The notes beneath the pieces are model-generated. The model was not told the DNA's origin and searched no databases. It worked only from the letters and a program-made list of their open reading frames with translations. Of a DNA stretch of 11,855 nt, positions 1 to 11,855 are shown piece by piece. A program made the translations under genes and the position numbers. The first letter of the stretch is position 1. Every line of letters starts with the position of its first letter. Source of the DNA: a virus (taxonomy: Duplodnaviria > Heunggongvirae > Uroviricota > Caudoviricetes); the IMG/VR virus record IMGVR_UViG_3300010259_000016, positions 1 to 11,855 of that record. One strand, given 5' to 3'.

Positions 1-118
1 ACTTAGTGCCACTGATTTTGTCCTCAAAAATCCGCTCACATCCCGCGCAGTTCAGTGCATTACGTTGCAAATCGGTGTTCTGGTCATTTGTTGACACGCG
101 TACATAGCCAATAAGCAT
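1..118 (-). CDS. Serine DNA invertase (Gin/Pin/Cin/Hin family), N-terminal 39 codons only; gene continues beyond the left edge
   Basis: Reverse complement of 1..118 translates from the ATG at 118..116 as MLIGYVRVSTNDQNTDLQRNALNCAGCERIFEDKISGTK. This is the conserved N-terminus of small serine invertases, including the YVRVSTNDQ motif with the catalytic serine at position 9. Too short and edge-truncated to appear in the ORF track. Confidence 0.9.
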   Translation of the reverse strand, partial: MLIGYVRVSTNDQNTDLQRNALNCAGCERIFEDKISGTK

Positions 119-173
119 GATCAATCCCCTGAATAAAAACCGGGGATGATGCCAGTTAGTCGTAATCGCTGCA

Positions 174-199
174 TTTTCTTAAACGTTGGTTTGGGAGAA
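174..199. other. Invertase crossover site 1 (gix/hix-like, 26 bp)
   Basis: TTTTCTTAAACG-TT-GGTTTGGGAGAA: two 12-bp half-sites around a central TT dinucleotide, fitting the remembered gix/hix half-site pattern TTnTCnnAAACC. The inner half-site (188..199) is the exact reverse complement of 2107..2118. Lies 56 bp upstream of the invertase start. Confidence 0.8.
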
Positions 200-646
200 G
201 GTTCAGCATTACCCGTTGGCGTGCCTGTTCCGTGGCCTTCCGCCACTCCGCCAACAGGCTGGCTGAAATGCAACGGTGCGGCTTTTTCTGCTGAAGAATA
301 CCCGGAACTGGCAAAGGCTTACCCGACAAATAAATTGCCTGATTTACGTGGTGAGTTCATTCGTGGCTGGGATGACGGAAGAGGAATAGATACTAACCGT
401 AGCTTGCTTTCGTCACAGGGAGATGCCATTCGAAATATAATTGGTGCATTAGTGGATGTCAGGTTTAATACCTACCCTTCTGATTCTGGCGTTTTTACAA
501 CCAGCGTCATCGGAGATGCTTCATCTGATTCAATTAAAGGTGGTTATGCAAAGCGAGTAACATTCGATGCTTCCAGAGTTGTTCCAACTGCAAACGAAAA
601 CCGACCTCGTAACATTGCCTTTAATTATATCGTGAGGGCTGCCTGA
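187..646 (+). CDS. Alternative tail-fibre variable C-terminal segment, silent in this orientation; has no start of its own and would be fused to the constant fibre region after inversion
   Basis: ORF 146..646 contains GLGEGSALPVGVPVPWPSATPPTGWLKCNGAAFSAEEYPELAKAYP, a tail-fibre C-terminal receptor-binding motif. The frame is continuous with the constant part of the fibre gene across the crossover site. The first 14 residues of the track ORF (MMPVSRNRCIFLNV) are outside the segment and probably not translated. Confidence 0.8.
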
Positions 647-1248
647 TGAATAAAGCCGTATTAAATAACGAACTCATTGCCATAAAAGCGGGAGACATTA
701 CCATTTATAATTATGATGGTGAAACGCGGGAATATATTTCCACATCAACTGAATATCTTGCGGTTGGCGTCGGTATCCCGGCATGTTCTTGTTTAGATGC
801 ACCAGTTACACATAAAGCTGGTTATGCAATCTGCCGTTCTGCAGATTTTAACTCATGGGAATATGTGCCAGACCATCGCGGTGAAATCATCTATAGCACT
901 GAAACAGGAGAATCGAAAGAAATCACAGCTCCGGGTGATTACCCTGAAAATACAACCACTATCGCCCCGTTAACGCCATATGATAAATGGGATGGTGAGA
1001 AATGGGTGACGGATACTGAGGCACAGCATAGTGCCGCAGTAGACGCAGCAGAAGCACAGCGCCAGTCACTGATTGATGCAGCAATGGCTTCCATTAGTCT
1101 GATTCAGCTGAAATTACAGGCCGGACGGAAACTGACGCAGGCAGAAACAACCCGACTTAACGCCGTGCTGGATTACATTGACGCGGTGACGGCAACAGAT
1201 ACCAGCACAGCGCCGGACGTCATCTGGCCTGAACTGCCGGAGGCGTAG
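646..1248 (+). CDS. Tail-fibre assembly protein (Tfa chaperone) paired with the alternative fibre end
   Basis: 200 aa. Start overlaps the stop of the preceding fibre segment (TGATG). C-terminus DYIDAVTATDTSTAPDVIWPELPEA is a Tfa-type tail. Sits directly downstream of a fibre C-terminal module. Confidence 0.85.
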   Translation: MNKAVLNNELIAIKAGDITIYNYDGETREYISTSTEYLAVGVGIPACSCLDAPVTHKAGYAICRSADFNSWEYVPDHRGEIIYSTETGESKEITAPGDYPENTTTIAPLTPYDKWDGEKWVTDTEAQHSAAVDAAEAQRQSLIDAAMASISLIQLKLQAGRKLTQAETTRLNAVLDYIDAVTATDTSTAPDVIWPELPEA

Positions 1249-1663
1249 GCCATTCAATATCTGGAGCACTGGAGGGATCAACCAGTTCCAGTGCGTCCAG
1301 ATAATCCAGCCATAAATTATATTGCTCCAGCTCGTTACCTTTCAGACGACCAATAGCAGCTTTGCCAGGCCACTGATGGGTATTGATGTAAGTATTGGCT
1401 TCTGAAACCAAAGATATTTTTTTCATTTCAGCCATCAACACCTCATCCTCTTTTGAAGGCGGTGGGGAATTAATCCATATTGGCCGTCCTGAACTGTCAG
1501 CGCCAATTTCTTTCCCTTCTGGATGCAGCCCAAGAAATTGCTCATATGTTTCTCGGGTAATTTCAATAACATCATCTGGAAGCGTTCCCGCATCCTCATA
1601 TTCTGGAAACAATTCTTGTAGATAAAAACTTTTACTTCCGGGTGAAAAGAATACTGAGTTCAT
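1220..1663 (-). CDS. Tail-fibre assembly protein (Tfa chaperone) paired with the currently expressed fibre end
   Basis: 147 aa. ATG lies 2 nt after the fibre stop codon. C-terminus DYLDALELVDPSSAPDIEWPTPPAVQAR is a Tfa-type tail. Its 3' end overlaps the opposite-strand tfa by 29 bp. Confidence 0.85.
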   Translation of the reverse strand: MNSVFFSPGSKSFYLQELFPEYEDAGTLPDDVIEITRETYEQFLGLHPEGKEIGADSSGRPIWINSPPPSKEDEVLMAEMKKISLVSEANTYINTHQWPGKAAIGRLKGNELEQYNLWLDYLDALELVDPSSAPDIEWPTPPAVQAR

Positions 1664-1665
1664 TA

Positions 1666-3168
1666 TTACCGTCCAATGATTAACGCTGAGACGCTGGTAT
1701 CTGAAGGAAAGGCTGCATTCAGTGGTTTGTCGACTTTGAATACAATCGTATTATTCCCCCGGACAGCGGCAAAAGAACAAACCGCCGTCGCGTATGAACC
1801 TGTAATATTACTGGATACACCACCATAGGCTGTTGTTGATACCAGAGGGATAACGCCCAGCACCTTATTAGGAAATACAAAGGGCAATGTGGCTGTGGCA
1901 ATATAAGACTTATTAGAACCTGTAATGGCATAAGCATTATCAGTCATTCCATTCATCGCCACTGGACCGCTTATACTTACAGTAACCATCTGAGTGATTA
2001 GCCCGTCAGGTTGACGAATCACAAAATTTCCATTGCCACCAGTAACCGTCCAGAAAGACATATCAGGGATTTGGTTTTCCCCGTTGCCCACATTCCGTTT
2101 TGCCGCTTCTCCCAAACCAAGGTATGCGAGAAGACCAGCTACATCCTTTCCACTCAAATTGGTAAGCGTATTGTCCAGCGGTTGTTTACCTGCCAGCGCA
2201 TTAAGCATTGTCGTGGCAAAGTTCGGATCATTCCCCAGTGCCGCCGCCAGTTCGTTCAGTGTATCCAGTGCCGCAGGTGCAGAACCCACCATTGCTGCAA
2301 TCGCTGATTTCACAAAAGCTGTAGTGGCAATCTGTGTATTGTTGACCGACTGTGCCGCAGTAGGTGCTGTTGGCGTTCCGGTGAGTGCCGGACTCGACAG
2401 CGGTGCTTTTAGTGCCAGCGTATTGTTAATGGTGGTACTGAATTTCGGGTCATTGTTAATGGCTGCGGCAATTTCTTTCAGTGTGTCCAGCGTGGCTGGC
2501 GCACCGTTAATCAGAGCAGTAATAGCGGCCTGAACAAACTCAGTGGTCGCAATCCGCGTGGTGTTATTTCCTGCTGCAGGCGTCGGCGCTTTTGGTTCTC
2601 CGGTAAATGTCGGATTATGTTTCTGCGCATACTGGGTATGAGGATCTTGTGCGGCAATGTGGTTTCTCATCTGGTCATCCACATACAGCTTTAATTCCAG
2701 GACTTCATCATCCACATATTTACGGGTTGCCAGCACTACAGCAGGGTCGATTTTCAGGGTGATTTTGTCCGTACTGCTGGTAATCAGCACCATGCGCACG
2801 GTCTGGGTGCGCCCGCTGCCTTCAGCCAGTTGCGGCTTATAGCTTTCCGGGCAGTTGCCCACGGCAATCAATGCCCCGGACTCATCAAACAGGCCCACTT
2901 CACGTATCCACCAACCGCCCTCGTTTTCAGGGATCACCTGTTCAGCAATAATCTGGCTGCTGTTCTGCGGGTCGATATAAAGCATATTCAGCGCAGCCCG
3001 GCGTTTCTCATTTACCAGTGCCGTCTGCTTTGCGTCCGGCGTTGGCAATACTCCGCCGCCATCGCCCACCGCCATATGGGTAATTTTTAGCGGCACACCG
3101 AGCGCGGCGGCGCTGGCAAGTTTCGCCGCGCCAATATCCGTCAGCAGGGTATAAAATTTTGTGCTCAT
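1666..3168 (-). CDS. H: Tail fibre protein (P2 gpH-like): constant N-terminal part 2120..3168, currently fused to the variable C-terminal part 1666..2119
   Basis: 500 aa. N-terminus MSTKFYTLLTDIGAAKLASAAALGVPLKITHMAVGDGGG...ESYKPQLAEGSGRTQTVRMV matches the P2 gpH N-terminal anchor as I remember it. Internal tandem repeats are present. The crossover site falls in codons 350..354 (LGLGE). Confidence 0.9.
   Translation of the reverse strand: MSTKFYTLLTDIGAAKLASAAALGVPLKITHMAVGDGGGVLPTPDAKQTALVNEKRRAALNMLYIDPQNSSQIIAEQVIPENEGGWWIREVGLFDESGALIAVGNCPESYKPQLAEGSGRTQTVRMVLITSSTDKITLKIDPAVVLATRKYVDDEVLELKLYVDDQMRNHIAAQDPHTQYAQKHNPTFTGEPKAPTPAAGNNTTRIATTEFVQAAITALINGAPATLDTLKEIAAAINNDPKFSTTINNTLALKAPLSSPALTGTPTAPTAAQSVNNTQIATTAFVKSAIAAMVGSAPAALDTLNELAAALGNDPNFATTMLNALAGKQPLDNTLTNLSGKDVAGLLAYLGLGEAAKRNVGNGENQIPDMSFWTVTGGNGNFVIRQPDGLITQMVTVSISGPVAMNGMTDNAYAITGSNKSYIATATLPFVFPNKVLGVIPLVSTTAYGGVSSNITGSYATAVCSFAAVRGNNTIVFKVDKPLNAAFPSDTSVSALIIGR
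2107..2132. other. Invertase crossover site 2 (gix/hix-like, 26 bp), inside the tail-fibre coding sequence
   Basis: TTCTCCCAAACC-AA-GGTATGCGAGAA. The inner half-site and central dinucleotide are the exact reverse complement of site 1 (188..199 plus TT at 186..187). Confidence 0.8.
2179..2583 (-). repeat. Internal tandem duplication within the tail-fibre gene (two copies of about 60-70 codons)
   Basis: Protein repeats TTRIATTEFVQAAITALINGAPATLDTLKEIAAAINNDPKFSTTINNTLALKAP and NTQIATTAFVKSAIAAMVGSAPAALDTLNELAAALGNDPNFATTMLNALAGKQP. The corresponding DNA is visibly similar (for example gtggcaatctgtgtattgttgac versus ggtcgcaatccgcgtggtgttatt). Confidence 0.7.
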
Positions 3169-3770
3169 GGATTCACTCTCATTGTGTCAATAACATGGAC
3201 CGCCCCGCCTTCATGCGCGGTGCCACCGGAAATAATCGTTTCGTTGATATACGGATAGATCGTGATTTCTTCGCCAAGATAGCTGGCGGCTCCCACCCAA
3301 TGCGGGCCGCTGGTCTGCAGATTGATGGACATGCCGATCATGTGGCGGCTACATGGTTTGGCATCGCTTATCAGTCGCTCAAGTTCCAGATAGGTATCTT
3401 CAGTGATGCCCTGGTCCTGCACGCCGATATCCAGGCGAAACGTGCCCGGTGCCTCTCCGGTCTGCCACCACTCAATAATGCGGATCAGAAAGCCGAACGG
3501 CTCCACCACCCGCCGCACGGCACTGGTGGTCCCTTTATGCTGATGAATATAAAAAGCATCCTTCACCACCTGGCGCTTGACGCTTTCTGTCCAGCCCTCG
3601 TCCCAGCGATCCACAGAGAACGCCCAGGCGAGATAAGGCAGGAAACTGACCGGACAGGTTGCCGGATTCCACAAGTCACGAAGCGGCACCTGCAGATCAG
3701 AAATCCCGCTGCAGGTTTGCGCCAGTCGGCGCTCCAGTGGTGTTGAACCCGGTGGCAGCAGACTATTCAT
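3165..3770 (-). CDS. I: Baseplate/tail protein I (P2 gpI-like)
   Basis: 201 aa. Position between the baseplate J gene and the tail fibre gene, overlapping the fibre start by 4 nt (ATGA). Sequence MNSLLPPGSTPLERRLAQT...FLPYLAWAFSVDRWDEGW is typical of P2 gpI-family proteins. Confidence 0.8.
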   Translation of the reverse strand: MNSLLPPGSTPLERRLAQTCSGISDLQVPLRDLWNPATCPVSFLPYLAWAFSVDRWDEGWTESVKRQVVKDAFYIHQHKGTTSAVRRVVEPFGFLIRIIEWWQTGEAPGTFRLDIGVQDQGITEDTYLELERLISDAKPCSRHMIGMSINLQTSGPHWVGAASYLGEEITIYPYINETIISGGTAHEGGAVHVIDTMRVNP

Positions 3771-4671
3771 CCGTTCCTCCGTTGGTTACGCTCCACTGCG
3801 TACATGATGCCGCCTGTGTTTTGTTCAGGACCACATCCGCCAGAGGAGAAGCCAGCTCCACACGCTGCACACCCTCAACATGCAGGGAGGCAAAGATGGC
3901 GCTACGGCGAATATCCCGACCAAGACGCGTCTGACTGGCGATGTACTTCTGCAGGCTGGCTTTTGCCGCTGCCATTACCGGCTCTGCTTCCGGTCCAGGA
4001 TAGAGAAAAATGGTGGCTTCCACGCGATACGGGATGATTTCTGCGCTGCGAACCGTAAGACGGTCAGCCACCGGGCGGACGTTCTCACTGTTCAGAGCTT
4101 TTTCCACCACGTCCAGCAGGTCTTTTTCTGCGGTTCCATCGCCTTCGCGGCTAAGGACAGTCAGCACCACCTCTGCAGGTGCCGGGCTGGTTGCACTGAC
4201 ATCCGCCACCCGACCGTCGGCGCTTCGGGCATGAAATTCATAAGCTGCAGTTGGCCCCGCAACTGAAAGCCCTTCAAAGGCTGCAGGCACACGCAGGCGT
4301 AACGCTTCATCGCTTTCCATCACAGCTGCAACGGGCGGCACAGCGTCATTATCAGCAGGCGTCACCGTCAGGCGTTTCACGTTGTAGTTGGCAGCGAGCT
4401 GGTCAAGATCGCTGCCCATCGCGTAAGCCACCATCACAGCCTGCGCGGCTTCGTTAATGCGCTGGCGCAGAAGCAACTCACGGTAAGCGTTCTCCTGCAG
4501 CAATTTGGTGACGGGTTCAGATTCCAGTTCCAGCGTACGGATCACTGCTTCCTGCTCATCTTTCGGATGAAGCGCCACAAATTCGGCCTTGCGTTCGGCA
4601 AGCAGCGTCTCAAAGTCCGGCACATCCACAATCTGCGGCGCAGGCAACTGCGAAAGGTCAATCACTGCCAT
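3763..4671 (-). CDS. J: Baseplate wedge protein J (P2 gpJ-like)
   Basis: Track ORF 3763..4710. The likely start is the internal Met at 4671 (MAVIDLSQLPAPQIVDVPDFETLLAERKA...), preceded by an AGGAG Shine-Dalgarno; this matches the remembered P2 gpJ N-terminus. C-terminus ...RVELASPLADVVLNKTQAASCTQWSVTNGGTDE. Confidence 0.9.
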   Translation of the reverse strand: MAVIDLSQLPAPQIVDVPDFETLLAERKAEFVALHPKDEQEAVIRTLELESEPVTKLLQENAYRELLLRQRINEAAQAVMVAYAMGSDLDQLAANYNVKRLTVTPADNDAVPPVAAVMESDEALRLRVPAAFEGLSVAGPTAAYEFHARSADGRVADVSATSPAPAEVVLTVLSREGDGTAEKDLLDVVEKALNSENVRPVADRLTVRSAEIIPYRVEATIFLYPGPEAEPVMAAAKASLQKYIASQTRLGRDIRRSAIFASLHVEGVQRVELASPLADVVLNKTQAASCTQWSVTNGGTDE

Positions 4672-5017
4672 TCTCTGCTCCTGTTGATACGGAAAGGGAA
4701 ACGGGCACACCGTTATTACGCCGCCCGCTCAGCGCCACCACCATTGAACCGTCAAAATTGCTGTTGATGGTGATGGAATCCAGCGTCATCCGTGGCTCCC
4801 AGCGACTCAGCGCCACATACACTGCCGACATGACCTGCAGGCGTAATGCCGGATTTTGTGGCTGGTCTATTAGCGACGACAGCAGGGAACCATATTCACG
4901 ACGAGCAATGCGGCTACCCTGCGGCGTCAGCAGAATGTCCCGCACCGACTGGCGCAGATGGTCAATATCAGTAATGACTTTGCCGCTGGTATTGTTCATC
5001 CCGCTATAAAGCGTCAT
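4658..5017 (-). CDS. W: Baseplate assembly protein W (gpW / gp25-like)
   Basis: 119 aa. Lies between V and J with overlapping start and stop codons. Size and sequence (...ILLTPQGSRIARREYGSLLSSLID...) fit the GPW/gp25 family. Confidence 0.85.
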   Translation of the reverse strand: MTLYSGMNNTSGKVITDIDHLRQSVRDILLTPQGSRIARREYGSLLSSLIDQPQNPALRLQVMSAVYVALSRWEPRMTLDSITINSNFDGSMVVALSGRRNNGVPVSLSVSTGAENGSD

Positions 5018-5592
5018 ACCGGGCCTCCGGTTGTATCGCCGCCTTTCAGGACGCCAGTATGCTGATGCGCATCAACCACGATCCCGTTAGAACTCATCGC
5101 TCCGCCTCCCTGGGTAACGCCACCATTGATCACCACTTCGCTGTTAATGCGCGTGCGGTCAGCCTCCAGTACAAACTCACTGGTTTTCATGGTGATGTTG
5201 TCAGCGGCCTCAATGACCATTGATTTGATGCCCCTGACATACCAGCGCCCGGTGGCGGGTTCGTATTCAAACCAGCCACCGTCAGGATGTTCTGTCACGC
5301 AGGCGTCCGCCGACGTCGACGGTGGCGCGAACTGATTCGAATAGATGGCGGGTAACGCAAAGGCGGTTTCCAGATTGCCGCCCAGACTCAGCAGCACCAC
5401 CTGCTCACCTTCCGATGGTCGCCACCATGTGCGGGCATTCCCGGCACGCAGCGTCAGCCAGCTGATCCAGTTGGTTTCAAGCTCGCCCGTTTTCACCCGG
5501 CAAAGCCAGTTTTCCCTGTCCACTTCGGTGACTACCCCTGTGCGGATCAGGTTGGTGATAAGGCGCATGATTTCGGTTAATTGTGCGTTCAT
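5014..5592 (-). CDS. V: Baseplate assembly/spike protein V (P2 gpV-like)
   Basis: 192 aa. MNAQLTEIMRLITNLIRTGVVTEVDRENWLCRVKTGELETNWISWLTLRAGNARTWWRPSEGEQV resembles the P2 gpV N-terminus. C-terminal ...HQHTGVLKGGDTTGGPV. Confidence 0.85.
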   Translation of the reverse strand: MNAQLTEIMRLITNLIRTGVVTEVDRENWLCRVKTGELETNWISWLTLRAGNARTWWRPSEGEQVVLLSLGGNLETAFALPAIYSNQFAPPSTSADACVTEHPDGGWFEYEPATGRWYVRGIKSMVIEAADNITMKTSEFVLEADRTRINSEVVINGGVTQGGGAMSSNGIVVDAHQHTGVLKGGDTTGGPV

Positions 5593-5637
5593 AGGGAAAG
5601 GTTGCCATCAGGGGAAGAAAGGCGGCAGTGCTGCAAC

Positions 5638-5655
5638 TTGTATCAGTGCTGATAC
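5638..5655. promoter_or_regulatory. TGT-N12-ACA dyad in the S-V intergenic gap; candidate Ogr/Delta-type late-promoter activator site (P_V-like) for the V-W-J-I-H operon
   Basis: TGTATCAGTGCTGATACA is a near-perfect palindrome matching the P2 late-promoter activator motif, located in the only gap (5593..5660) between S and V. Confidence 0.5.
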
Positions 5656-5660
5656 AAAGA

Positions 5661-6107
5661 TCACCCCGCCAGCCATTGCAGAATCATGTCGCGGGTCATT
5701 GCCTCAACATCATCATTTACACCCAGCAGGCGGCGCTCTGCGTAACGGACCTCCGGTCCTTTGCGACTGACGCGATCACGCAGGCCGTAATGGTGAACAC
5801 GGGCAATACGCTGCACCTTGCCTTCAAACTGTACGCTGGCAGAGTCGGCGCTGGCGGCAGTTTTCAGGTATTTTGTGGTGCGCAGCTTTGCAAACATCTG
5901 ACGTTTGATGCGCCCCTTCTTGCTGCGTGCTGTTACCCTGCGCGGTTCATAACTGCTGCCATCTGGATTGCGCTGCATCCTGATATTCTGCTGCTGTGTC
6001 CGGCGCAGTTCCTGCGCCAGCTGGCGCATCATGCGGCTTCTCGTGTCTGGTTCCAGATTCGCCAGCAAGGCACTCAGCCAGTCGTCCACCTTCTGCAGTT
6101 CAGCCAC
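5661..6107 (-). CDS. S: Tail completion protein S (P2 gpS-like virion morphogenesis protein)
   Basis: 148 aa. Position after R and before V. Sequence MAELQKVDDWLSALLANLEPDTRSRMMRQLAQELRR... is typical of the phage virion morphogenesis family. Confidence 0.8.
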   Translation of the reverse strand: MAELQKVDDWLSALLANLEPDTRSRMMRQLAQELRRTQQQNIRMQRNPDGSSYEPRRVTARSKKGRIKRQMFAKLRTTKYLKTAASADSASVQFEGKVQRIARVHHYGLRDRVSRKGPEVRYAERRLLGVNDDVEAMTRDMILQWLAG

Positions 6108-6552
6108 GTTTCACCGTCCACATTTCTTCAGGTTCATCGGGTTCTGCTACAGCTTCAACGCTCGACACACTGCCGTCAGTGCTGACCAGCACACGTTCCG
6201 TCAGTTGCAGGTTAAGGCTGATATCACAGACATCGTTGCGCAAAATATCCACATCAAAGGTGAATAGCTTTTCCCGTAACGCCGGGTTATTGATGGCATC
6301 GGGCTGGTTATCCCGAAGCCACAGTAAAACCGGGGCCATCAGCAGATTCTGGTCGCCGCTGAAATCCTCTATCACCACGTTCAGGGTATAGCGGTACTCC
6401 CATGACATGGAGCTGGCCCCCGTGGCAACCAGCGAACCGTTATCCACAAACAGATGCAGTTTGTCCGGGTTATTGCGGACATAAGGCACCGCTTTATTGA
6501 GGGCGTGGCGAAGGGATTGTGGTTTGTTCACTGTTTCGCTCCTGACACGCAA
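6100..6552 (-). CDS. R: Tail completion protein R (P2 gpR-like)
   Basis: 150 aa. Motif LFVDNGSLVATGASSMSWEYRYTLNVVIEDFSGD...LLWLRDNQPD matches gpR-family proteins. Overlaps the S start by 8 nt. Confidence 0.8.
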   Translation of the reverse strand: MRVRSETVNKPQSLRHALNKAVPYVRNNPDKLHLFVDNGSLVATGASSMSWEYRYTLNVVIEDFSGDQNLLMAPVLLWLRDNQPDAINNPALREKLFTFDVDILRNDVCDISLNLQLTERVLVSTDGSVSSVEAVAEPDEPEEMWTVKRG

Positions 6553-6784
6553 TAATCATGTCCACTTTGTCTGCACAGACCGCCCAGGCGGCCTCCGTTT
6601 CATCCAGCAACGCGTTCAGGTCACCGTTAGTGCGCGGCGCTGCCTGCCCCAGCCGACACGGCGTCACTCGCGGACAACCACTGACGGTAAGCTGCACCTC
6701 CGGTGAGTGTGGGGCGTTCCCGCAGCCGGATAATGTCAGCAGGCAAAGGAGTATCAGCCCAGCGGCGTAAATCCTCGTTCTCAC
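6494..6784 (-). CDS. lysC: Outer-membrane spanin lipoprotein (LysC / Rz1-like), nested in another frame within lysB and running into R
   Basis: 96 aa. MRTRIYAAGLILLCLLTLSGCGN... has a signal peptide followed by an LSGC lipobox. Proline-rich. Embedded out of frame in the i-spanin gene as in P2 lysB/lysC. Confidence 0.7.
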   Translation of the reverse strand: MRTRIYAAGLILLCLLTLSGCGNAPHSPEVQLTVSGCPRVTPCRLGQAAPRTNGDLNALLDETEAAWAVCADKVDMIIACQERNSEQTTIPSPRPQ

Positions 6785-7055
6785 GTTTCAGTTCCTCAAT
6801 CCGGTGTTGTCGTTGTCTCAGTAGTGCGCTGGTCTGTTCTGCGTCGGCATAGAGTAGCGCCTGCTCCCGGTTGTTGGTTTCTGTCAGAATGGACAGGCTG
6901 ATAAGCTGGCTGTTGCTCTTTGCCAGTGCCTGGCTTTTGCTCCGAAGCTCGTCTGCCTGCGTGCTGATGGTCTGGCTGGCATCAGCCAGCCGCCACGTCT
7001 GCCAGCCCAGCGCCGCCAGTAATAACGCCAGCACAACCAGCAGCAACCGGTTCAT
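6627..7055 (-). CDS. lysB: Inner-membrane spanin (LysB / Rz-like)
   Basis: 142 aa. N-terminal transmembrane helix MNRLLLVVLALLLAALGW followed by a charged, coiled-coil-like periplasmic region (ELRSKSQALAKSNSQL...RQRQHRIEELKRENEDLRRW). Confidence 0.75.
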   Translation of the reverse strand: MNRLLLVVLALLLAALGWQTWRLADASQTISTQADELRSKSQALAKSNSQLISLSILTETNNREQALLYADAEQTSALLRQRQHRIEELKRENEDLRRWADTPLPADIIRLRERPTLTGGAAYRQWLSASDAVSAGAGSAAH

Positions 7056-7429
7056 GCTGCTACCTGTTGCGCCATCTGATTACGGGTGATCCAGAAGGCA
7101 ATAACGGTCAGTAGATAAAAGACCAGGGTAATAGCCCACCCCGTCCAGGCGAGACTGACGACAATCAGCAATCGCATCATCCAGCTGATAAATACGTTTT
7201 CTTTTCGGGTAATTGTCTTCAGCAAAGATGCCCTCAACTCCTGCCAGAGCGGGCCATTCTTAATTAACGCAGCCAGTGCTACCGGAATTACCGCCCATGT
7301 CAGCAAACAGGCTACCCAAACGCCGGACGCTGCCAGTACCGGAAAAATCCCCTGCGGATACACCATTGCGGCGATTAACAGCGCCATCCATAACATCAGA
7401 AACAGCCCGCTGATTAATTTCTTTTTCAT
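7052..7429 (-). CDS. lysA: LysA-like multi-pass membrane protein (lysis timing accessory)
   Basis: Track ORF 7052..7501. The likely start is MKKKLISGLFLMLWMALLIAAM at 7429, preceded by a GGGAG Shine-Dalgarno. About four hydrophobic helices. Sits between endolysin and spanins as P2 lysA does. Confidence 0.6.
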   Translation of the reverse strand: MKKKLISGLFLMLWMALLIAAMVYPQGIFPVLAASGVWVACLLTWAVIPVALAALIKNGPLWQELRASLLKTITRKENVFISWMMRLLIVVSLAWTGWAITLVFYLLTVIAFWITRNQMAQQVAA

Positions 7430-7430
7430 T

Positions 7431-7943
7431 TCAGTTTGCTCCCTGTAAACACCAGGCCATCTCCCGCGCACGGCGGTTATCCAGCCCCTGATTAAACACA
7501 CCTTTTACATAAACCCAGCGCGGCAACTGTCGGCACGCATCCGCCCAGCGCCGCTGATTGAGTAATTTCACCAGCGTGGAACTGCAGGCATTGCCCGTAC
7601 CCACGTTGAAGGCAAACGACACCGCAGCGTCATACACCTTCTGCGGCGGCTGTTGCTTCACACACCTTTCCAGCGCCCGCTCCACACGCAGCACGTTGGA
7701 GATCAGCCCTTCCGCTGCCTGTCGTTCCGTAATGGTTTTGCCTGGAATGACGCCAGATGTATTACCAATGCCGTCGGTCCAGACACCCGCGCTGCACTGA
7801 TACGGCTGCAGACGACAGCCTTCGTAATCGGCAATCAGTTTCAGTCCCTCCACGGAGGTGTGAAGCTGCTGAAAACCCGGCAGCGTGGCAGCAATAGCCA
7901 GCACGGCCCCGACAAGGCAGCGTTTAACGATTGATGGATTCAT
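7431..7943 (-). CDS. SAR endolysin (lysozyme, P1 Lyz / phage 21 R-like)
   Basis: 170 aa. N-terminal Gly/Ala-rich weakly hydrophobic helix KRCLVGAVLAIAATLPGF (signal-arrest-release type), then EGCRLQPYQCSAGVWTDGIGNTSGV, which closely resembles the P1 Lyz catalytic region as I remember it. Confidence 0.85.
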   Translation of the reverse strand: MNPSIVKRCLVGAVLAIAATLPGFQQLHTSVEGLKLIADYEGCRLQPYQCSAGVWTDGIGNTSGVIPGKTITERQAAEGLISNVLRVERALERCVKQQPPQKVYDAAVSFAFNVGTGNACSSTLVKLLNQRRWADACRQLPRWVYVKGVFNQGLDNRRAREMAWCLQGAN

Positions 7944-8139
7944 AGTCCTCCCGCGAGATCTGCCCGTCGCGCAGAAGCTGGTAGGCTTTGTGTTTGTAGT
8001 ACCAGTTGATAGCCAGCATCAGCACACCAATCATCAGGCCGCCCAGCGTTGAGGCATCCTTGATGGACAAATCGCCCAGCCAGGCCAGCACAACGGCGAT
8101 GCAGTACGTGATAAAGGCGCTGATTCGCTCAAGCGTCAT
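7924..8139 (-). CDS. Small two-helix holin (class II-like, possibly a pinholin partner of the SAR endolysin)
   Basis: 71 aa. Two hydrophobic helices (ISAFITYCIAVVLAWLG and LGGLMIGVLMLAINWYY) and a charged C-terminal tail KHKAYQLLRDGQISREDYESINR. Immediately upstream of and overlapping the endolysin gene. Confidence 0.65.
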   Translation of the reverse strand: MTLERISAFITYCIAVVLAWLGDLSIKDASTLGGLMIGVLMLAINWYYKHKAYQLLRDGQISREDYESINR

Positions 8140-8142
8140 AAT

Positions 8143-8346
8143 TCAGTCCCATAGCTGGACGGTCTGCACGGTGGTGGTGGGCGGAATGTCCGGCAGCTCC
8201 ACCGGCAGCCCGTGAGGTAAAAAGGGGCCATATTCGGCAAGCCCCGGATTTGCCTTCAGTACCTGCTCCGTGACCCCCTGCGTGCGCCCGTAATGACGCC
8301 AGCAAAGCGCGTCCACCGTGTCATACTGATGCGCACGCACTTTCAT
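8143..8346 (-). CDS. X: Tail protein X (P2 gpX-like)
   Basis: 67 aa. MKVRAHQYDTVDALCWRHYGRTQGVTEQVLKANPGLAEYGPFLPHGLPVELPD matches the remembered P2 gpX sequence pattern and its length. Confidence 0.8.
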   Translation of the reverse strand: MKVRAHQYDTVDALCWRHYGRTQGVTEQVLKANPGLAEYGPFLPHGLPVELPDIPPTTTVQTVQLWD

Positions 8347-8810
8347 CAGATAAGCTCCACTGTGCAGTGCGGCGCATCCTGCACCCGGCTGATGGCCCAG
8401 CGGGCGTCACGCCACAAATCACCGCTGGATTCCGCCAGTTCCTCGCCTCGCTTCACACCGGATGCCGTGGCGTCATAGTCCTGGTATCGTTCGTTGAGCA
8501 TGGCGCGTGCCCAGCAGTAAACTGCGTTGAAATAGTGCTGAATGCGCTCACTTTTGCCGTCCAGCTGTTCCGCCGGAACCTCAGCCAGCGACGCATACCC
8601 CAGCATCTGCTGACGTCTGCGAAACTCATACAGCTCTGCGTTGACCTCCGAAATTGCCGACAGCGCAACCTGCTTTAAACGCGGCTGCGTCACCGTGCCG
8701 TCAGTGCGCATGACACTGCGAAACTCCGACAGGTCCACATCAGGCCAGAACGGCGTATTTCTGATGATTTCCGCCTGTTCCGGTGCCTGTTCTGGCGCAA
8801 CAAACTTCAT
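8346..8810 (-). CDS. L: Head completion/stabilisation protein L (P2 gpL-like)
   Basis: Track ORF 8346..8873. Start chosen at MKFVAPEQ (8810) because AGGAGA lies 7 nt upstream, whereas the ATG at 8873 has no evident ribosome-binding site. Position between M and X. Confidence 0.7.
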   Translation of the reverse strand: MKFVAPEQAPEQAEIIRNTPFWPDVDLSEFRSVMRTDGTVTQPRLKQVALSAISEVNAELYEFRRRQQMLGYASLAEVPAEQLDGKSERIQHYFNAVYCWARAMLNERYQDYDATASGVKRGEELAESSGDLWRDARWAISRVQDAPHCTVELI

Positions 8811-8905
8811 GCTGCTTTCTCCTGAAATAGAGGGCGGTGGACGGGGTTTTGATGTGGCAGTGCCTTTCGCCACCCCGTGCCGCCCGTGCGCGGGGGCACG
8901 TTCTG

Positions 8906-9556
8906 TCAGCGGCTGTCATTGCGCAGTCTGCGCTCCAGCTGCTGTTTGTCTTTTTTCACGCCACAGCGGGGATCGAGCTGTAACGCATGGTTGAGATGAT
9001 TAAGGGCGGAAGCCGGGTTGCTTTCACTCAGGACAGCGCCAATCGCTTTATGCAGACGCGCCCGTGACTGGTCCGGCATATCCATACCGTCTGTCAGCTC
9101 CAGGGTCTGCAGCAACAGATCGGCATCAAAGCCGGTGGCGGCAAGCATTGCGCTCTGGGCTGCATCTGCCATTTCCTCTGCCAGCACGGTCTGCACGTTG
9201 CGGTTACCTAACGGCATCACCCAGCCATGACGCAGGGCGTGACGCCCGATCTCCAGCGCCCCGGCATAATCTCCGGCATCAATGCGCCACAGCATCACGT
9301 ACATCAGCACGTCATCCTGCTGTGCGCCTCCGGCAGTCAGGACACCCTCTGCCCAGGCGGCGTACTTCGGCAGCAGTTCCACCTTAATCTCCGCTTTTTT
9401 GACCGTGGACTGAACGCCCTTGAGACGGCGGCGGTCTTCCGCCAGTTGCAGCAGCATCAGGTCATAGCCCGACGCGTGGCGAACGCTGCCGCCCTCACGG
9501 GCGGCCTGTTCAGCCTGAACGCGCAGGCGATGCTGCCGTGCGGGACTCAGGCTCAT
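8906..9556 (-). CDS. M: Terminase small (endonuclease) subunit M (P2 gpM-like)
   Basis: 216 aa. ...LPKYAAWAEGVLTAGGAQQDDVLMYVMLWRIDAGDYAGALEIGRHALRHGWVMP... matches the gpM family. Directly downstream of the major capsid gene. Confidence 0.85.
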   Translation of the reverse strand: MSLSPARQHRLRVQAEQAAREGGSVRHASGYDLMLLQLAEDRRRLKGVQSTVKKAEIKVELLPKYAAWAEGVLTAGGAQQDDVLMYVMLWRIDAGDYAGALEIGRHALRHGWVMPLGNRNVQTVLAEEMADAAQSAMLAATGFDADLLLQTLELTDGMDMPDQSRARLHKAIGAVLSESNPASALNHLNHALQLDPRCGVKKDKQQLERRLRNDSR

Positions 9557-9559
9557 GGG

Positions 9560-10618
9560 TTACGCTCCGGCTTCTGCTGCAGCGGCGCTGAAATCGCCAA
9601 TCTGGATGTTTTCCACCAGTGCGGCGCAGCGGTAGTCCTCAACCACATAGGCTTCGTTAACGGATTCAAAGTTTTCAATCCGGTCACGTTTCGGGTTGTC
9701 GATAACTGAACGGCGGCGGGTGTCTTCCTGCCAGTAGATGGACAGGTTATCCAGACGGGTGATCAGCAGCGCATTCGGCGGGAAGAACGGCGCACGCACG
9801 GCCTGCAGGCCACCCATGCGTTTCTGGCTGATGATCATATCGGCAGCCAGTTTTTCACTGTTTTCCTGCTCTTTGTTGACCAGCGGGAAATACTTGTCAG
9901 ACAGCAGTTCACGACCGCAAATCACCACCAGATCGTCATCGTCCTGGTAGACCACGTCGATAAGCTCATTGACGGCATCCATCACCACTGCGTCCAGGTT
10001 GGCATATTCGCCACCTTTACCGACTTTCACCGCACCCGGTGTGGTTTCACCGCCCGTGGTGGTGCTGCCCATGACGTGATCCGGTGCATCCTCACGGATT
10101 TTCTGCAGCCAGCCTTTGTTCACATCCTGCAGTAGCGGGTTTTCACTACGGTTGGAGGTTTTCGCACGCTTCACGCCGTTAAAGCCGATCATGATGCGGT
10201 CCAGTGCCTGACGTTTCACGATGGCGTCACGGATACGCACCTGGAAATCCTGAAACTTCGCCCACAGGTCCAGCTTCGCGTAGGTCAGCACCGTGTCAAA
10301 GTTGGTCTGCTCGCATTTATATTCCACATCGACCATCAGCGTCGGATCGACAGGTTCACGCTCTTTCGCGGTGGTGTCAGTGGTTCCGGCAATGGTGCTG
10401 CCAACACCCAGCCCCAGCAGCTGACCGGACTGCTCAGTCACTGGCGTGACGTTAATCAGCGTCAGGAAAGCGGCGGACTGCTGGATCTGGTCTTCCAGCG
10501 TCTGCTGTACAGACGGCTCCACGGTGAACTTGCTGGACAGTTCTTCAACTGCCACACCGTTCAGACGCGCCAGCTGCTGCAGGTAAGCGTTAAAAGCAAA
10601 GCGGGTATTCTTCTTCAT
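9560..10618 (-). CDS. N: Major capsid protein N (P2 gpN-like)
   Basis: 352 aa. Position between scaffold and small terminase. Sequence and length fit the P2 major capsid family. Confidence 0.9.
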   Translation of the reverse strand: MKKNTRFAFNAYLQQLARLNGVAVEELSSKFTVEPSVQQTLEDQIQQSAAFLTLINVTPVTEQSGQLLGLGVGSTIAGTTDTTAKEREPVDPTLMVDVEYKCEQTNFDTVLTYAKLDLWAKFQDFQVRIRDAIVKRQALDRIMIGFNGVKRAKTSNRSENPLLQDVNKGWLQKIREDAPDHVMGSTTTGGETTPGAVKVGKGGEYANLDAVVMDAVNELIDVVYQDDDDLVVICGRELLSDKYFPLVNKEQENSEKLAADMIISQKRMGGLQAVRAPFFPPNALLITRLDNLSIYWQEDTRRRSVIDNPKRDRIENFESVNEAYVVEDYRCAALVENIQIGDFSAAAAEAGA

Positions 10619-10634
10619 CAGGTTTTGTGCTCCA

Positions 10635-11468
10635 TCAGCAATTGGTCAGAGTGTCAGCGGGGGCGTTACCGCCTGTTGCACGCTGGCGGTAGTCCTGGCG
10701 GCTGTCTTCATGGCTCAGCTTGTCCACCAGTTCGTTAAAGGCGGTCTGCTGTGCCTGCAGGGCAGTCTCCAGCTCAGACAGGCGTTCTTCCTGCTCAGAC
10801 AGGGATTTTTCGGTGCGCGCACTCAGGTTCTGCTGCTCAGTGGCGACCAGTTCCACGGCCTTATGCACATCAGAGAACCGGGCGTCATCGGACTGCTCTT
10901 TTTTGGTGAACAGCGCCGTGACACGGGCAAACAGGGACGGTTTGTCATCCTGGATTTCTTCCAGTTCGATCACCGTTTCCTCTGCAGCGGTAAAGAGATT
11001 GGCAGGATTCTGCTTCCGGTTTGCCAGCGGGTTATGGGCCGCACTGGCGCTGAATGTCAGCATTTCAGTGCCCAGACTGGCAGGGTCATCAGTGGCAGCC
11101 AGGCCGACCAGGTAGGCTTTGCCCGTATCAGCAAACTTCGGGCTGACTTCCATAGAGGTGAATAATTTCTGGCCTTTTTTCACCAGTTCCACCAGGGACT
11201 CCGTTGGCTCAACGTCGGCATACAGCGCCATCTTGCCTGCCAGCGGACCTTCCGTGATTTCTTCAGCAAACAGCGCAGTCACCTTGCCGTAGCGGTTAAA
11301 GGTGCTGTCCGGCAGATAAGACTTGATGTGCTCAAGGTTAATCAGCGCGGTATACACCGCCGGGTTGTAGCTGGCTGCCATCTGTTCCAGCCATTCACGC
11401 TGGATTTCGCGTCCGTCGGTGGTGGCACCTTCCACCCCGATGCGAAAACGCTTTGCTTTCACTGTCAT
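10635..11468 (-). CDS. O: Capsid scaffolding protein O (P2 gpO-like)
   Basis: 277 aa. Acidic, coiled-coil-rich C-terminal half (ELEEIQDDK...SEQEERLSELETALQAQQTAFNELVDKL) and position directly upstream of the capsid gene. Confidence 0.85.
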   Translation of the reverse strand: MTVKAKRFRIGVEGATTDGREIQREWLEQMAASYNPAVYTALINLEHIKSYLPDSTFNRYGKVTALFAEEITEGPLAGKMALYADVEPTESLVELVKKGQKLFTSMEVSPKFADTGKAYLVGLAATDDPASLGTEMLTFSASAAHNPLANRKQNPANLFTAAEETVIELEEIQDDKPSLFARVTALFTKKEQSDDARFSDVHKAVELVATEQQNLSARTEKSLSEQEERLSELETALQAQQTAFNELVDKLSHEDSRQDYRQRATGGNAPADTLTNC

Positions 11469-11547
11469 GAGCCGTGCTCCGTTAGAAAAAACTTACTGGA
11501 GCCTTATGGTTGCGGTGATGGGGGCAGTGAAACAATGCGCGGTATTT

Positions 11548-11565
11548 GTACCGACAACCACACAA
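11548..11565. promoter_or_regulatory. TGT-N12-ACA dyad in the O-P divergent intergenic region; candidate late-promoter activator site
   Basis: TGTACCGACAACCACACA lies in the 142-bp gap between the divergent O and P starts. If centred at about -55 it would serve a leftward promoter with a roughly 33-nt leader before O. Confidence 0.45.
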
Positions 11566-11610
11566 ACCGCAGGCGGGGAAAGCCTTCATTCAAGGCTGTA
11601 GGTTTGTGCC

Positions 11611-11855
11611 ATGAACACCACACTGACACCCGCAGATCTCGATCCCCGTCGGCAGGCCATGCTGCTGTACTTTCAGGGATACCGCGTCGCCCGCATTGCT
11701 GAAATGCTGGGCGAGAAAGTTGCAACCGTTCACAGCTGGAAAAAACGCGACAAGTGGGGTGACTATGGGCCGCTGGATCAGATGCAGCTCACCACCGCCG
11801 CACGCTACTGCCAGCTCATTATGAAGGAGCACAAAGAAGGGAAAGATTTCAAAGA
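11611..11855 (+). CDS. P: Terminase large (ATPase) subunit P, N-terminal 81 codons; continues beyond the right edge
   Basis: Open frame from the ATG at 11611 to the window end: MNTTLTPADLDPRRQAMLLYFQGYRVARIAEMLGEKVATVHSWKKRDKWGDYGPLDQMQ.... Divergent from O as in P2 gene order (Q-P then O-N-M-L). Not in the ORF track because no stop codon is reached. Confidence 0.6.
   Translation, partial: MNTTLTPADLDPRRQAMLLYFQGYRVARIAEMLGEKVATVHSWKKRDKWGDYGPLDQMQLTTAARYCQLIMKEHKEGKDFK

Follow-up and report, generated by a model that had tools for sequence, protein, structure and literature searches.

Within the window (the whole stretch of DNA analysed, 11,855 nt), the following genes and sites were identified:

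1..118, minus strand: first 39 codons of a serine DNA invertase of the Pin/Gin/Cin/Hin family, cut by the window edge (PF00239 Resolvase, E=2e-9)
29..100, no strand assigned: putative Fis-dependent recombinational enhancer inside the 5' coding region of the invertase, placed by position only
146..646, plus strand: open reading frame of the silent alternative fibre tip B, cassette proper 200-646 (148 aa; PF07484 Collar, E=1e-15; StfE-like)
174..199, no strand assigned: invertase-proximal crossover site (pix-type), 26 bp, TTTTCTTAAACG TT GGTTTGGGAGAA, core dinucleotide at 186-187
187..2119, no strand assigned: invertible segment of about 1.93 kb between both core dinucleotides
646..1248, plus strand: TfaE-like assembly chaperone for tip B, 200 aa (PF02413, E=2e-32)
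1220..1663, minus strand: TfaP-like assembly chaperone for tip A, 147 aa, expressed with H in this orientation (PF02413 Caudo_TAP, E=4e-27)
1666..3168, minus strand: H, P2 H-type tail fibre, 500 aa (PF12571 Phage_tail_fib at the N-terminus, E=1e-64)
1666..2106, minus strand: tip A, the variable fibre tip expressed in this orientation, H residues 355-500 plus stop, delimited by the end of the prefix common to H and H'
2107..2132, no strand assigned: crossover site inside the fibre gene, 26 bp, TTCTCCCAAACC AA GGTATGCGAGAA, core at 2119-2120, encoding AYLGLGE
2107..3168, minus strand: constant N-terminal part of H, residues 1-354, outside the invertible segment (PF12571)
3165..11468, minus strand: P2-type late genes in P2 order, namely I, J, W, V, S, R, spanins, lysozyme, holin, X, L, M, N, and O (assigned from Pfam, the MS1665 annotation, and the P2 and Fels-2 maps)

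The five elements proposed by the first-pass annotation, i.e., the fibre gene, two assembly genes, an opposed tip module, and the 5' end of an invertase gene, were all recovered where it had placed them, with support from Pfam. The late region encodes the families Tail_P2_I, Baseplate_J, GPW_gp25, Phage_base_V, Phage_tail_S, P2_Phage_GpR, Phage_tail_X, and Phage_GPL, and is collinear with P2 and Fels-2, which is the gene order expected of Peduoviridae. A reading as a tailocin was rejected on account of the capsid, scaffold, terminase, and lysis genes. An Rfam scan of the whole window returned no matches. The cassettes and invertase sit in a variable slot that has the fibre-assembly gene on one side and the sheath gene on the other; in relatives, the sheath gene comes after the invertase.

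The constant part of H is 54% identical to P2 H over 338 aa, and residues 184-340 are 78% identical to residues 256-412 of P1 S. Tip A matched phrog_12714 (E=8e-48) and, more weakly, other tail-fibre PHROGs, but contained no Pfam domain, gave nothing at E<=1 in a sequence search of the PDB, and had no match among the fibres of Mu, P1, e14, or P2. Its chaperone is 56% identical to e14 TfaP. Tip B, which is unrelated to tip A in sequence, is 60% identical to e14 StfE, belongs to phrog_523 (tail collar fibre), and has relatives in the PDB among the collar regions of T4 gp12/gp37-type fibres. The chaperone of tip B is 93% identical to e14 TfaE and starts at an ATG that overlaps the stop of the tip B frame. 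In either inversion state, both chaperone start codons abut the fibre stop of their own tip.

The tip B cassette is preceded by the site-encoded residues GLGE and, further upstream, by an 18-aa in-frame leader that begins at ATGATG (146-151). The opposed module had been described as start-less, which is not strictly so given this in-frame ATGATG, which sits just outside the invertible segment. The ATGATG is kept in all relatives examined, and automatic annotation of relatives calls the ORF that starts there as a 165-aa gene. The leader between the MMP start and the crossover site is variable, while the MMP start itself is kept from e14 to pro483. The sole Shine-Dalgarno-like purine run, GGGG at 142-145, directly abuts the ATG at 146. 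Scans of positions 1-3400 for sigma-70 promoters and terminators found six promoter-like matches against 5.4 expected, which is chance level, and neither the invertase nor the silent cassette has one positioned to drive it.

The 39 invertase codons in the window translate to MLIGYVRVSTNDQNTDLQRNALNCAGCERIFEDKISGTK. The N-terminus MLIGYVRVSTNDQ (118..80, minus strand) fits the pattern GYxRVSTxxQ with the Ser9 nucleophile position present, and its identity over these 39 aa is 97% with PinE, 87% with Gin, and 82% with Cin. Since the window holds only this part of the gene, its integrity in this molecule is judged from the near-identical contig L010 (one mismatch against the window in 7168 bp), which encodes an intact 188-aa invertase with Resolvase and HTH_7 domains, in line with the 185-195 aa or so and the C-terminal helix-turn-helix of this family. 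A truncated or frameshifted invertase, which the first-pass annotation had named as one outcome that would speak against a switch, is therefore not what this near-identical contig carries. The full-length protein of L010 is 86% identical to PinE, 78% to Cin, and 74% to Gin, and matches the Gin structures 3UJ3/4M6F over its entire length (E=2e-92). The position of the putative enhancer is taken from the P1 record, where the Cin enhancer is annotated at nt 19-90 of cin; the corresponding stretch is identical at 56/72 positions to cin, 52/72 to gin, and 63/72 to pinE. In 13/15 pairs, synonymous third positions show higher conservation in this stretch than elsewhere in the gene, although the pairs are few and non-independent and the signal is inseparable from coding constraint.

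The two crossover sites, which the first-pass annotation had left unnamed, lie in inverted orientation and have an exact 15-nt core, TTGGTTTGGGAGAAG, in common. They fit the layout typical of this invertase family, in which imperfect 12-bp half-sites flank a 2-bp core. The pair forms the top inverted repeat of the region (174-200 / 2106-2132), and the 14-mer TTCTCCCAAACCAA occurs in exactly two copies in the window, again in inverted orientation. Both sites read TTCTCCCAAACC-AA-... when aligned with pix, cix, and gix, and the AA core dinucleotide is common with pix and cix. The invertase-proximal site has one mismatch against the pinE-proximal site of e14, and the 16-nt repeat described in print for e14 P (PMC12529663), which contains the 15-nt core, matches 16/16 nt at this site and 15/16 nt at the site in H. 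The site in H is identical in phage pro483 and MS1665, and the homology of several Klebsiella phage genomes begins precisely at 2107. No additional, shufflon-like crossover sites were found in the window at up to 3 mismatches in 14 nt or 9 in 26 nt, so that the window holds two sites, whereas a multiple-inversion system, such as p15B Min or the four-state P2-like locus of EPEC, has at least three sites and more than two arrangements.

In-silico inversion of 187..2119 joins the 354-aa constant part in frame to the 148-aa tip B, giving a 502-aa protein, H', which has residues 1-354 in common with H, ending in AYLGLGE. The second chaperone gene is then directly 3' of the new stop codon. The proposal that inversion swaps the fibre end together with its matching chaperone is borne out by this in-frame fusion and by a near-identical prophage in E. 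coli MS1665, which carries precisely this segment flipped. We regard the locus as very likely a Pin-type invertible tail-fibre switch with two states, carried in the late region of an E. coli prophage of the P2-like group (Peduoviridae).

In the mechanism that we propose, the 188-aa serine invertase would bind the two inverted 26-bp sites, one at codons ~346-354 of the fibre gene and the other adjoining the invertase gene, and would be assisted, by analogy with Gin/Cin/Hin, by an enhancer in the 5' end of its gene to which Fis binds. The invertase would cut the central AA/TT dinucleotide, its subunits would rotate, and religation would leave about 1.93 kb flipped. In the orientation of the window, the late operon would yield the constant part (Hc, 1-354) with tip A and the TfaP-like chaperone; in the other, Hc with the tail-collar, StfE-like tip B and the TfaE-like chaperone. 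As each orientation would make a different tip and chaperone, a lysogen population would release virions of two receptor specificities. The dissimilarity of tips A and B, together with the precedent of Mu and P1, suggests that they bind different receptors. We infer both the dependence on Fis and the enhancer, which is modelled on related systems, and the current rate of switching.

Among known systems, the nearest relative of the switch is the P segment and PinE of e14, a cryptic prophage of E. coli K-12. Both have an AA crossover dinucleotide, an invertase outside the segment that is transcribed away from it, and two chaperone genes that converge with a 29-nt overlap. However, e14 is a defective lambdoid remnant with an unrelated constant part (StfP), whereas here a P2 H-type fibre lies in a complete P2-type late region, and e14 has no counterpart of the tip A found here. 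In Mu G/Gin, as here, the N-terminus of the fibre is constant and encoded outside the segment, the segment holds two opposed cassettes, each of a tip with its chaperone, and gin is adjacent and transcribed away from the segment, but the gix sites of Mu (TTCCTGTAAACC GA GGTTTTGGATAA) have a GA rather than an AA core and its segment is about 3 kb compared to 1.9 kb. P1 C/Cin has an AA core and similar half-sites, but cin is transcribed towards the segment with cixL overlapping its 3' end, and the 4.2-kb C segment carries Mu-like tips, unlike the segment here. The proposed likeness to Mu G, P1 C, and e14 P is thus sound for the architecture, but the closest relationship is to e14 P/PinE and not to Mu G/Gin. 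The invertase matches those of all three; tip B and both chaperones match e14, while neither tip and neither chaperone is similar at E<=1e-3 to Mu S/S'/U/U', P1 S/U/U', or the P2 H tip and G, and a Mu-like label therefore fits the architecture only.

The first-pass annotation had also described the switch as grafted onto a P2-type operon and absent from canonical P2. The latter is correct, as the P2 record reads H, G, fun(Z), FI without an invertase. The former is true but not unusual, since in Fels-2, pro483, and other Peduoviridae the slot between G and FI is filled in the same way. Fels-2 (STM2702-2706), pro483, Cartapus, 500465-1, and two P2-like prophages of EPEC E2348/69 carry an invertase there, and the order J, I, H, TAP / TAP', H' fragment / DNA invertase / FI is that of the present locus. 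In pro483, the invertase-proximal site is also near-identical to the one here, but these relatives differ in their combination of tips. An invertase has been noted in the Z/fun hotspot of P2-like phages (bioRxiv 10.1101/2024.10.15.618418), and phase variation by inversion was shown in 2014 by sequencing in P2-like prophages of EPEC, with PCR for one complex locus (PMC4272514). One such EPEC locus has three repeats and four states (PMC4272514), compared to two sites and two states here. The architecture is already known: annotations of many P2-like phages include it, and experiments have demonstrated it in some P2-like prophages.

The resemblance to e14 raises the question of whether a role in the lysogen is chiefly what has been selected. 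The ORF starting at ATGATG (146) would then make a tip-only protein that, with its chaperone, blocks a surface receptor against other phages, and orientation would decide which tip is made, as has been reported of StfE2 in e14 following PinQ/PinE inversion. The modules and sites of the segment are e14-like, the in-frame MMP start outside the segment has persisted from e14 to pro483, and the e14 inversion product StfE2 is reported to block T2 adsorption (PMC12529663). Against this, the virion module that holds the element is of P2 type and complete, and the constant part of the fibre is intact, so that host-range switching fully explains the structure. Moreover, the GGGG directly abuts the ATG with no plus-strand promoter-like site upstream, the ATGATG may instead belong to a divergent control region of the invertase, and the stretch leading from MMP to the site varies. 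A chiefly lysogenic role is therefore considered highly improbable. By analogy with e14 StfE2 (PMC12529663), the "silent" cassette may still be expressed as a tip-only ORF of ~165 aa plus chaperone in either orientation, acting as an orientation-dependent receptor blocker in the lysogen, which we consider unlikely. If so, the switch would serve both virion host range and lysogen defense, and host Pin-family invertases could flip it in trans.

Naturally occurring orientation variants support switching. The MS1665 prophage is collinear with the window and 100% identical over 1-200 and 99.5% over 2106-11855, whereas 186-2123 aligns at 99.7% identity in reverse orientation. The breakpoints lie inside both sites, the one on the invertase side within 186-200, and the 502-aa form of the fibre is present as a gene in the MS1665 annotation. 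The pig isolates 1604D011 and 1504D004 have chromosomes of equal length and 100% identical flanks but opposite orientations of the segment. The tip A/tip B pair, counted at >=80% coverage, occurs in about 60 of 5426 complete E. coli genomes, 24 in the orientation of the window and 36 in the other. Comparison between genomes thus places the segment in both orientations across near-identical prophages, and the region is a genuine, probably active DNA-inversion switch that gives a P2-like E. coli prophage two alternative fibre tips.

It could be argued that the switch is a frozen relic, inherited from an ancestor but no longer inverting, with the fibre effectively fixed as Hc plus tip A. The window and three public contigs encoding an identical H protein all show a single orientation, the scan of 1-3400 revealed no recognisable invertase promoter, and the tape-measure gene of MS1665 is annotated as a pseudogene, so some members of the lineage are decaying. 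However, the window and MS1665 are 99.5-100% identical yet opposite in orientation, so a flip is very recent, and the two pig isolates likewise differ in orientation between identical flanks. The invertase ORF is intact, both sites retain matching cores, and Pin-family invertases of the host are able to use the same site core in trans (PMC12529663). A frozen state is accordingly very unlikely. Assembly artefacts or general (RecA) recombination between the inverted repeats are an exceedingly unlikely source of the orientation differences: short-read contigs do break beside the segment (L011 at window-equivalent 207, L012 at 1296) and L004 and L005 differ by 16 substitutions inside it, possibly through assembly or polishing problems, but the breakpoints fall precisely in canonical 26-bp invertase sites, the 15 nt of common identity are too short for efficient RecA recombination, the opposite orientations (24 versus 36) come from complete genome records of independent strains, and PCR has verified inversion at homologous loci (PMC4272514, PMC12529663).

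The significance of the switch extends little beyond correct annotation. In this element, the 165-aa "phage tail protein" or "hypothetical protein" beside the invertase is not a gene in its own right but the alternative fibre end, which is unexpressed, and the orientation that happened to be assembled determines which fibre protein is predicted. Host-range prediction and engineering of P2-like phages and tailocins should consider both tips. The crossover site is, in addition, a boundary at which phages exchange receptor-binding modules.

The window is the late region of a P2-like prophage; it lies on the minus strand and, by Pfam assignment, comprises O (scaffold), N (capsid), M (terminase), L, X, holin, lysozyme, spanins, R, S, V, W, J, and I, followed by the fibre region. 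The gene order is collinear with P2, Fels-2, and the annotated prophage of Escherichia coli strain MS1665. The fibre region contains the following features:

1666-3168, minus strand: tail-fibre gene H, 500 aa, with a P2 H-type N-terminal domain (PF12571, E = 1e-64)
1220-1663, minus strand: assembly gene (Caudo_TAP), 147 aa
646-1248, plus strand: second assembly gene (Caudo_TAP), 200 aa
146-646, plus strand: ORF with a tail-collar fibre C-terminal module (Pfam)
1-118, minus strand: first 39 codons of a resolvase-family gene, reading MLIGYVRVSTNDQ...

The five elements named by the first-pass annotation (the fibre gene, its assembly gene, the opposed assembly gene and fibre module, and the 5′ end of an invertase gene) are thus all in place. 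The two assembly (chaperone) genes are convergent and their 3′ ends overlap by 29 nt (1220-1248), exactly as in tfaP/tfaE of e14. An inverted repeat (1167-1184 and 1293-1310) corresponds to a shared LDYID/LDYLD motif encoded on opposite strands.

The top inverted repeat within 1-3400 pairs 174-200 with 2106-2132. Written as 26-bp invertase sites, 174-199 (reverse strand) is TTCTCCCAAACC-AA-CGTTTAAGAAAA and 2107-2132, inside H, is TTCTCCCAAACC-AA-GGTATGCGAGAA. The 14-mer TTCTCCCAAACCAA is present only at these two sites, and a search at up to 3 mismatches identified no further copies. The same scan retrieved known sites in the reference loci of e14 (pix; TTCTCCCAAACC-AA-CGTTTATGAAAA and ...-AA-GGTTTTCGAGAG), P1 (cixL and cixR, where annotated), and Mu (gix, with a GA core). 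The crossover sites of the window are therefore of the pix type. TTGGTTTGGGAGAAGG, which has been reported as the 16-nt repeat of the P segment in e14 (PMC12529663), matches exactly at 186-201 and at 15 of 16 nt at the site inside H.

Read in the fibre frame, each site gives G-L-G-E. Inversion of 187-2119 in silico yields an ORF of 502 aa, whose residues 1-354 are those of H (the constant part, ending ...AYLGLGE) and which continues into the collar-domain tip, or tip B (GSALPVGVPVPWPS...RAA). At 646, the stop codon of tip B overlaps the start codon (ATG) of the 200-aa chaperone gene, and that of the current tip (tip A) lies 2 nt from the ATG (1663) of the 147-aa chaperone gene. Each orientation of the segment therefore expresses, through the P2 late operon, a single tip together with the chaperone that belongs to it.

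Against complete E. coli genomes, the window as given has a best full-length match of 94.3%, and the window inverted in silico matches strain MS1665 at 99.8% in a single piece. In direct alignment to MS1665, 1-200 (100%) and 2106-11855 (99.5%) are collinear while 186-2123 (99.7%) aligns in reverse orientation, and the breakpoints therefore lie inside the two sites. The pig isolates 1604D011 and 1504D004 have chromosomes of equal length with 100% identical flanks and carry the segment in opposite orientations. This cassette pair occurs in complete E. coli genomes in the orientation of the window (n = 24) and in the opposite one (n = 36). At the junction in H, the constant part is fused to tip A in 25 genomes and to tip B in 431; tip B is thus a common module with many partners.

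Several further features of these genomes were observed. Besides the inversion, the two pig isolates differ by 16 substitutions (window-equivalent 1149-2034), all of them on the tip A/TfaP-like side of the segment, with the tip B half unchanged, which could reflect gene conversion from a second prophage copy (two places per genome) or an artefact of polishing with mixed-orientation reads. The circular E. coli chromosome NZ_OU342919.1 carries the fibre region twice, once per orientation (7759-11094 and 4891545-4894880, ~19 kb apart across the record origin), and the pair may represent tandem P2-like prophages or an assembly duplication. Two public contigs encoding an identical H, from an NCBI draft and a Logan assembly, end at window-equivalent 207, adjoining the invertase-proximal site, and at 1296, within the segment; such ends would result from a population of mixed orientation or from the repeat itself. 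The MS1665 prophage, the closest relative, carries the fibre segment inverted with respect to the window and yet may be defective: the annotation gives its tape-measure gene (3164-6228 of the prophage sequence) a frameshift and an internal stop. Of the 52 mismatches that separate the window from MS1665, 37 cluster in the capsid/scaffold genes (10133-11277), which points to recombination confined to this patch, the two prophages being ~99.9% identical elsewhere.

Looking up the 500-aa H protein by exact match led to contig AAXEVE010000018.1 (GCA_015339925.1), which has 1 mismatch to the window in 7168 bp and the same orientation. Its invertase gene is intact (188 aa, Resolvase and HTH_7 domains), with the sheath and tube genes coming after it, and encodes a protein identical to that of MS1665. 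Truncation beyond the window edge, which the first-pass annotation had held would count against a switch, is therefore not seen. The protein is 86% identical to PinE, 78% to Cin, and 74% to Gin (local blastp), and matches Gin crystal structures over its full length (E = 2e-92). The Cin enhancer is annotated at nt 19-90 of cin in the P1 record. The corresponding part of the window (29-100) is conserved, and in 13 of 15 pairwise comparisons its synonymous positions vary less than those elsewhere in the gene, although this is a weak test. Dependence on Fis would be expected from the invertase family.

Local blastp against proteins from the annotated Mu, P1, e14, and P2 records related the 200-aa chaperone to TfaE (93% identity), tip B to StfE (60%), and the 147-aa chaperone to TfaP (56%), all of e14, and the fibre constant part to P2 H (54%). 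No part showed similarity to Mu S/S′/U/U′. The constant part is a mosaic: residues 184-340 (window 2149-2617) are 78% identical to residues 256-412 of P1 S and contain two tandem ~55-aa repeats (NNT.IATT.FV...DTL.E.A.A..NDP.F) resembling the repeat elements that the annotation of P1 S lists. With its invertase gene placed outside the segment and reading away from it, the locus is like Mu and e14 and unlike P1. The switch proposed by the first-pass annotation is supported, but its closest kin is e14 P/PinE rather than Mu G/Gin.

Canonical P2 (H, G, fun(Z), FI) lacks a switch, as had been noted, but systems of this kind have been described before, in P2-like phages too. Fels-2 of Salmonella LT2 and phage pro483 are both annotated with the identical arrangement (I, H, TAP / TAP′, H′ fragment / DNA invertase / FI), and the site in H of pro483 is identical to that of the window. 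Cartapus, 500465-1, and Klebsiella phage KP12 also match the window, with the same gene set under the match (two tail-fibre, two assembly, and one DNA-invertase gene). In EPEC E2348/69, inversion phase variation was detected in two P2-like prophages; one has two states and the other four, and PCR validated all four variants (Goldberg et al., 2014; PMC4272514). A 2024 preprint (bioRxiv 10.1101/2024.10.15.618418) notes that the Z/fun hotspot of P2-like phages can hold DNA invertases whose neighbouring genes are inverted, and a systematic survey found programmed inversions enriched for tail-fibre, tail-fibre-assembly, and ‘phage tail protein I’ genes (PMC9881135).

The silent cassette ORF starts at an in-frame ATGATG (146; MMP...) just outside the invertible segment. 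Every relative examined, e14 and pro483 among them, keeps this start, but the residues that link it to the site are variable, and automatic annotation calls the resulting 163-165 aa ORF a gene in both orientations. In e14, StfE2, the homologous product of inversion, is reported to prevent adsorption of T2, and the e14 segment to be flipped in trans by PinQ of a different prophage (2025 paper, PMC12529663). Because of these reports, a lysogen-side role and flipping in trans are conceivable for the switch of the window, albeit improbable. Against such a role, the sole Shine-Dalgarno-like run (GGGG, 142-145) leaves no spacing before the ATG, no promoter-like site was found upstream of the ORF, and the conserved ATGATG bases may instead be part of a divergent control region of the invertase.

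The preferred reading remains a switch between two fibre tips. In several Klebsiella phage genomes, homology to the window starts at 2107, precisely where the crossover site begins, which fits the site serving as an exchange boundary for receptor-binding modules between phages.
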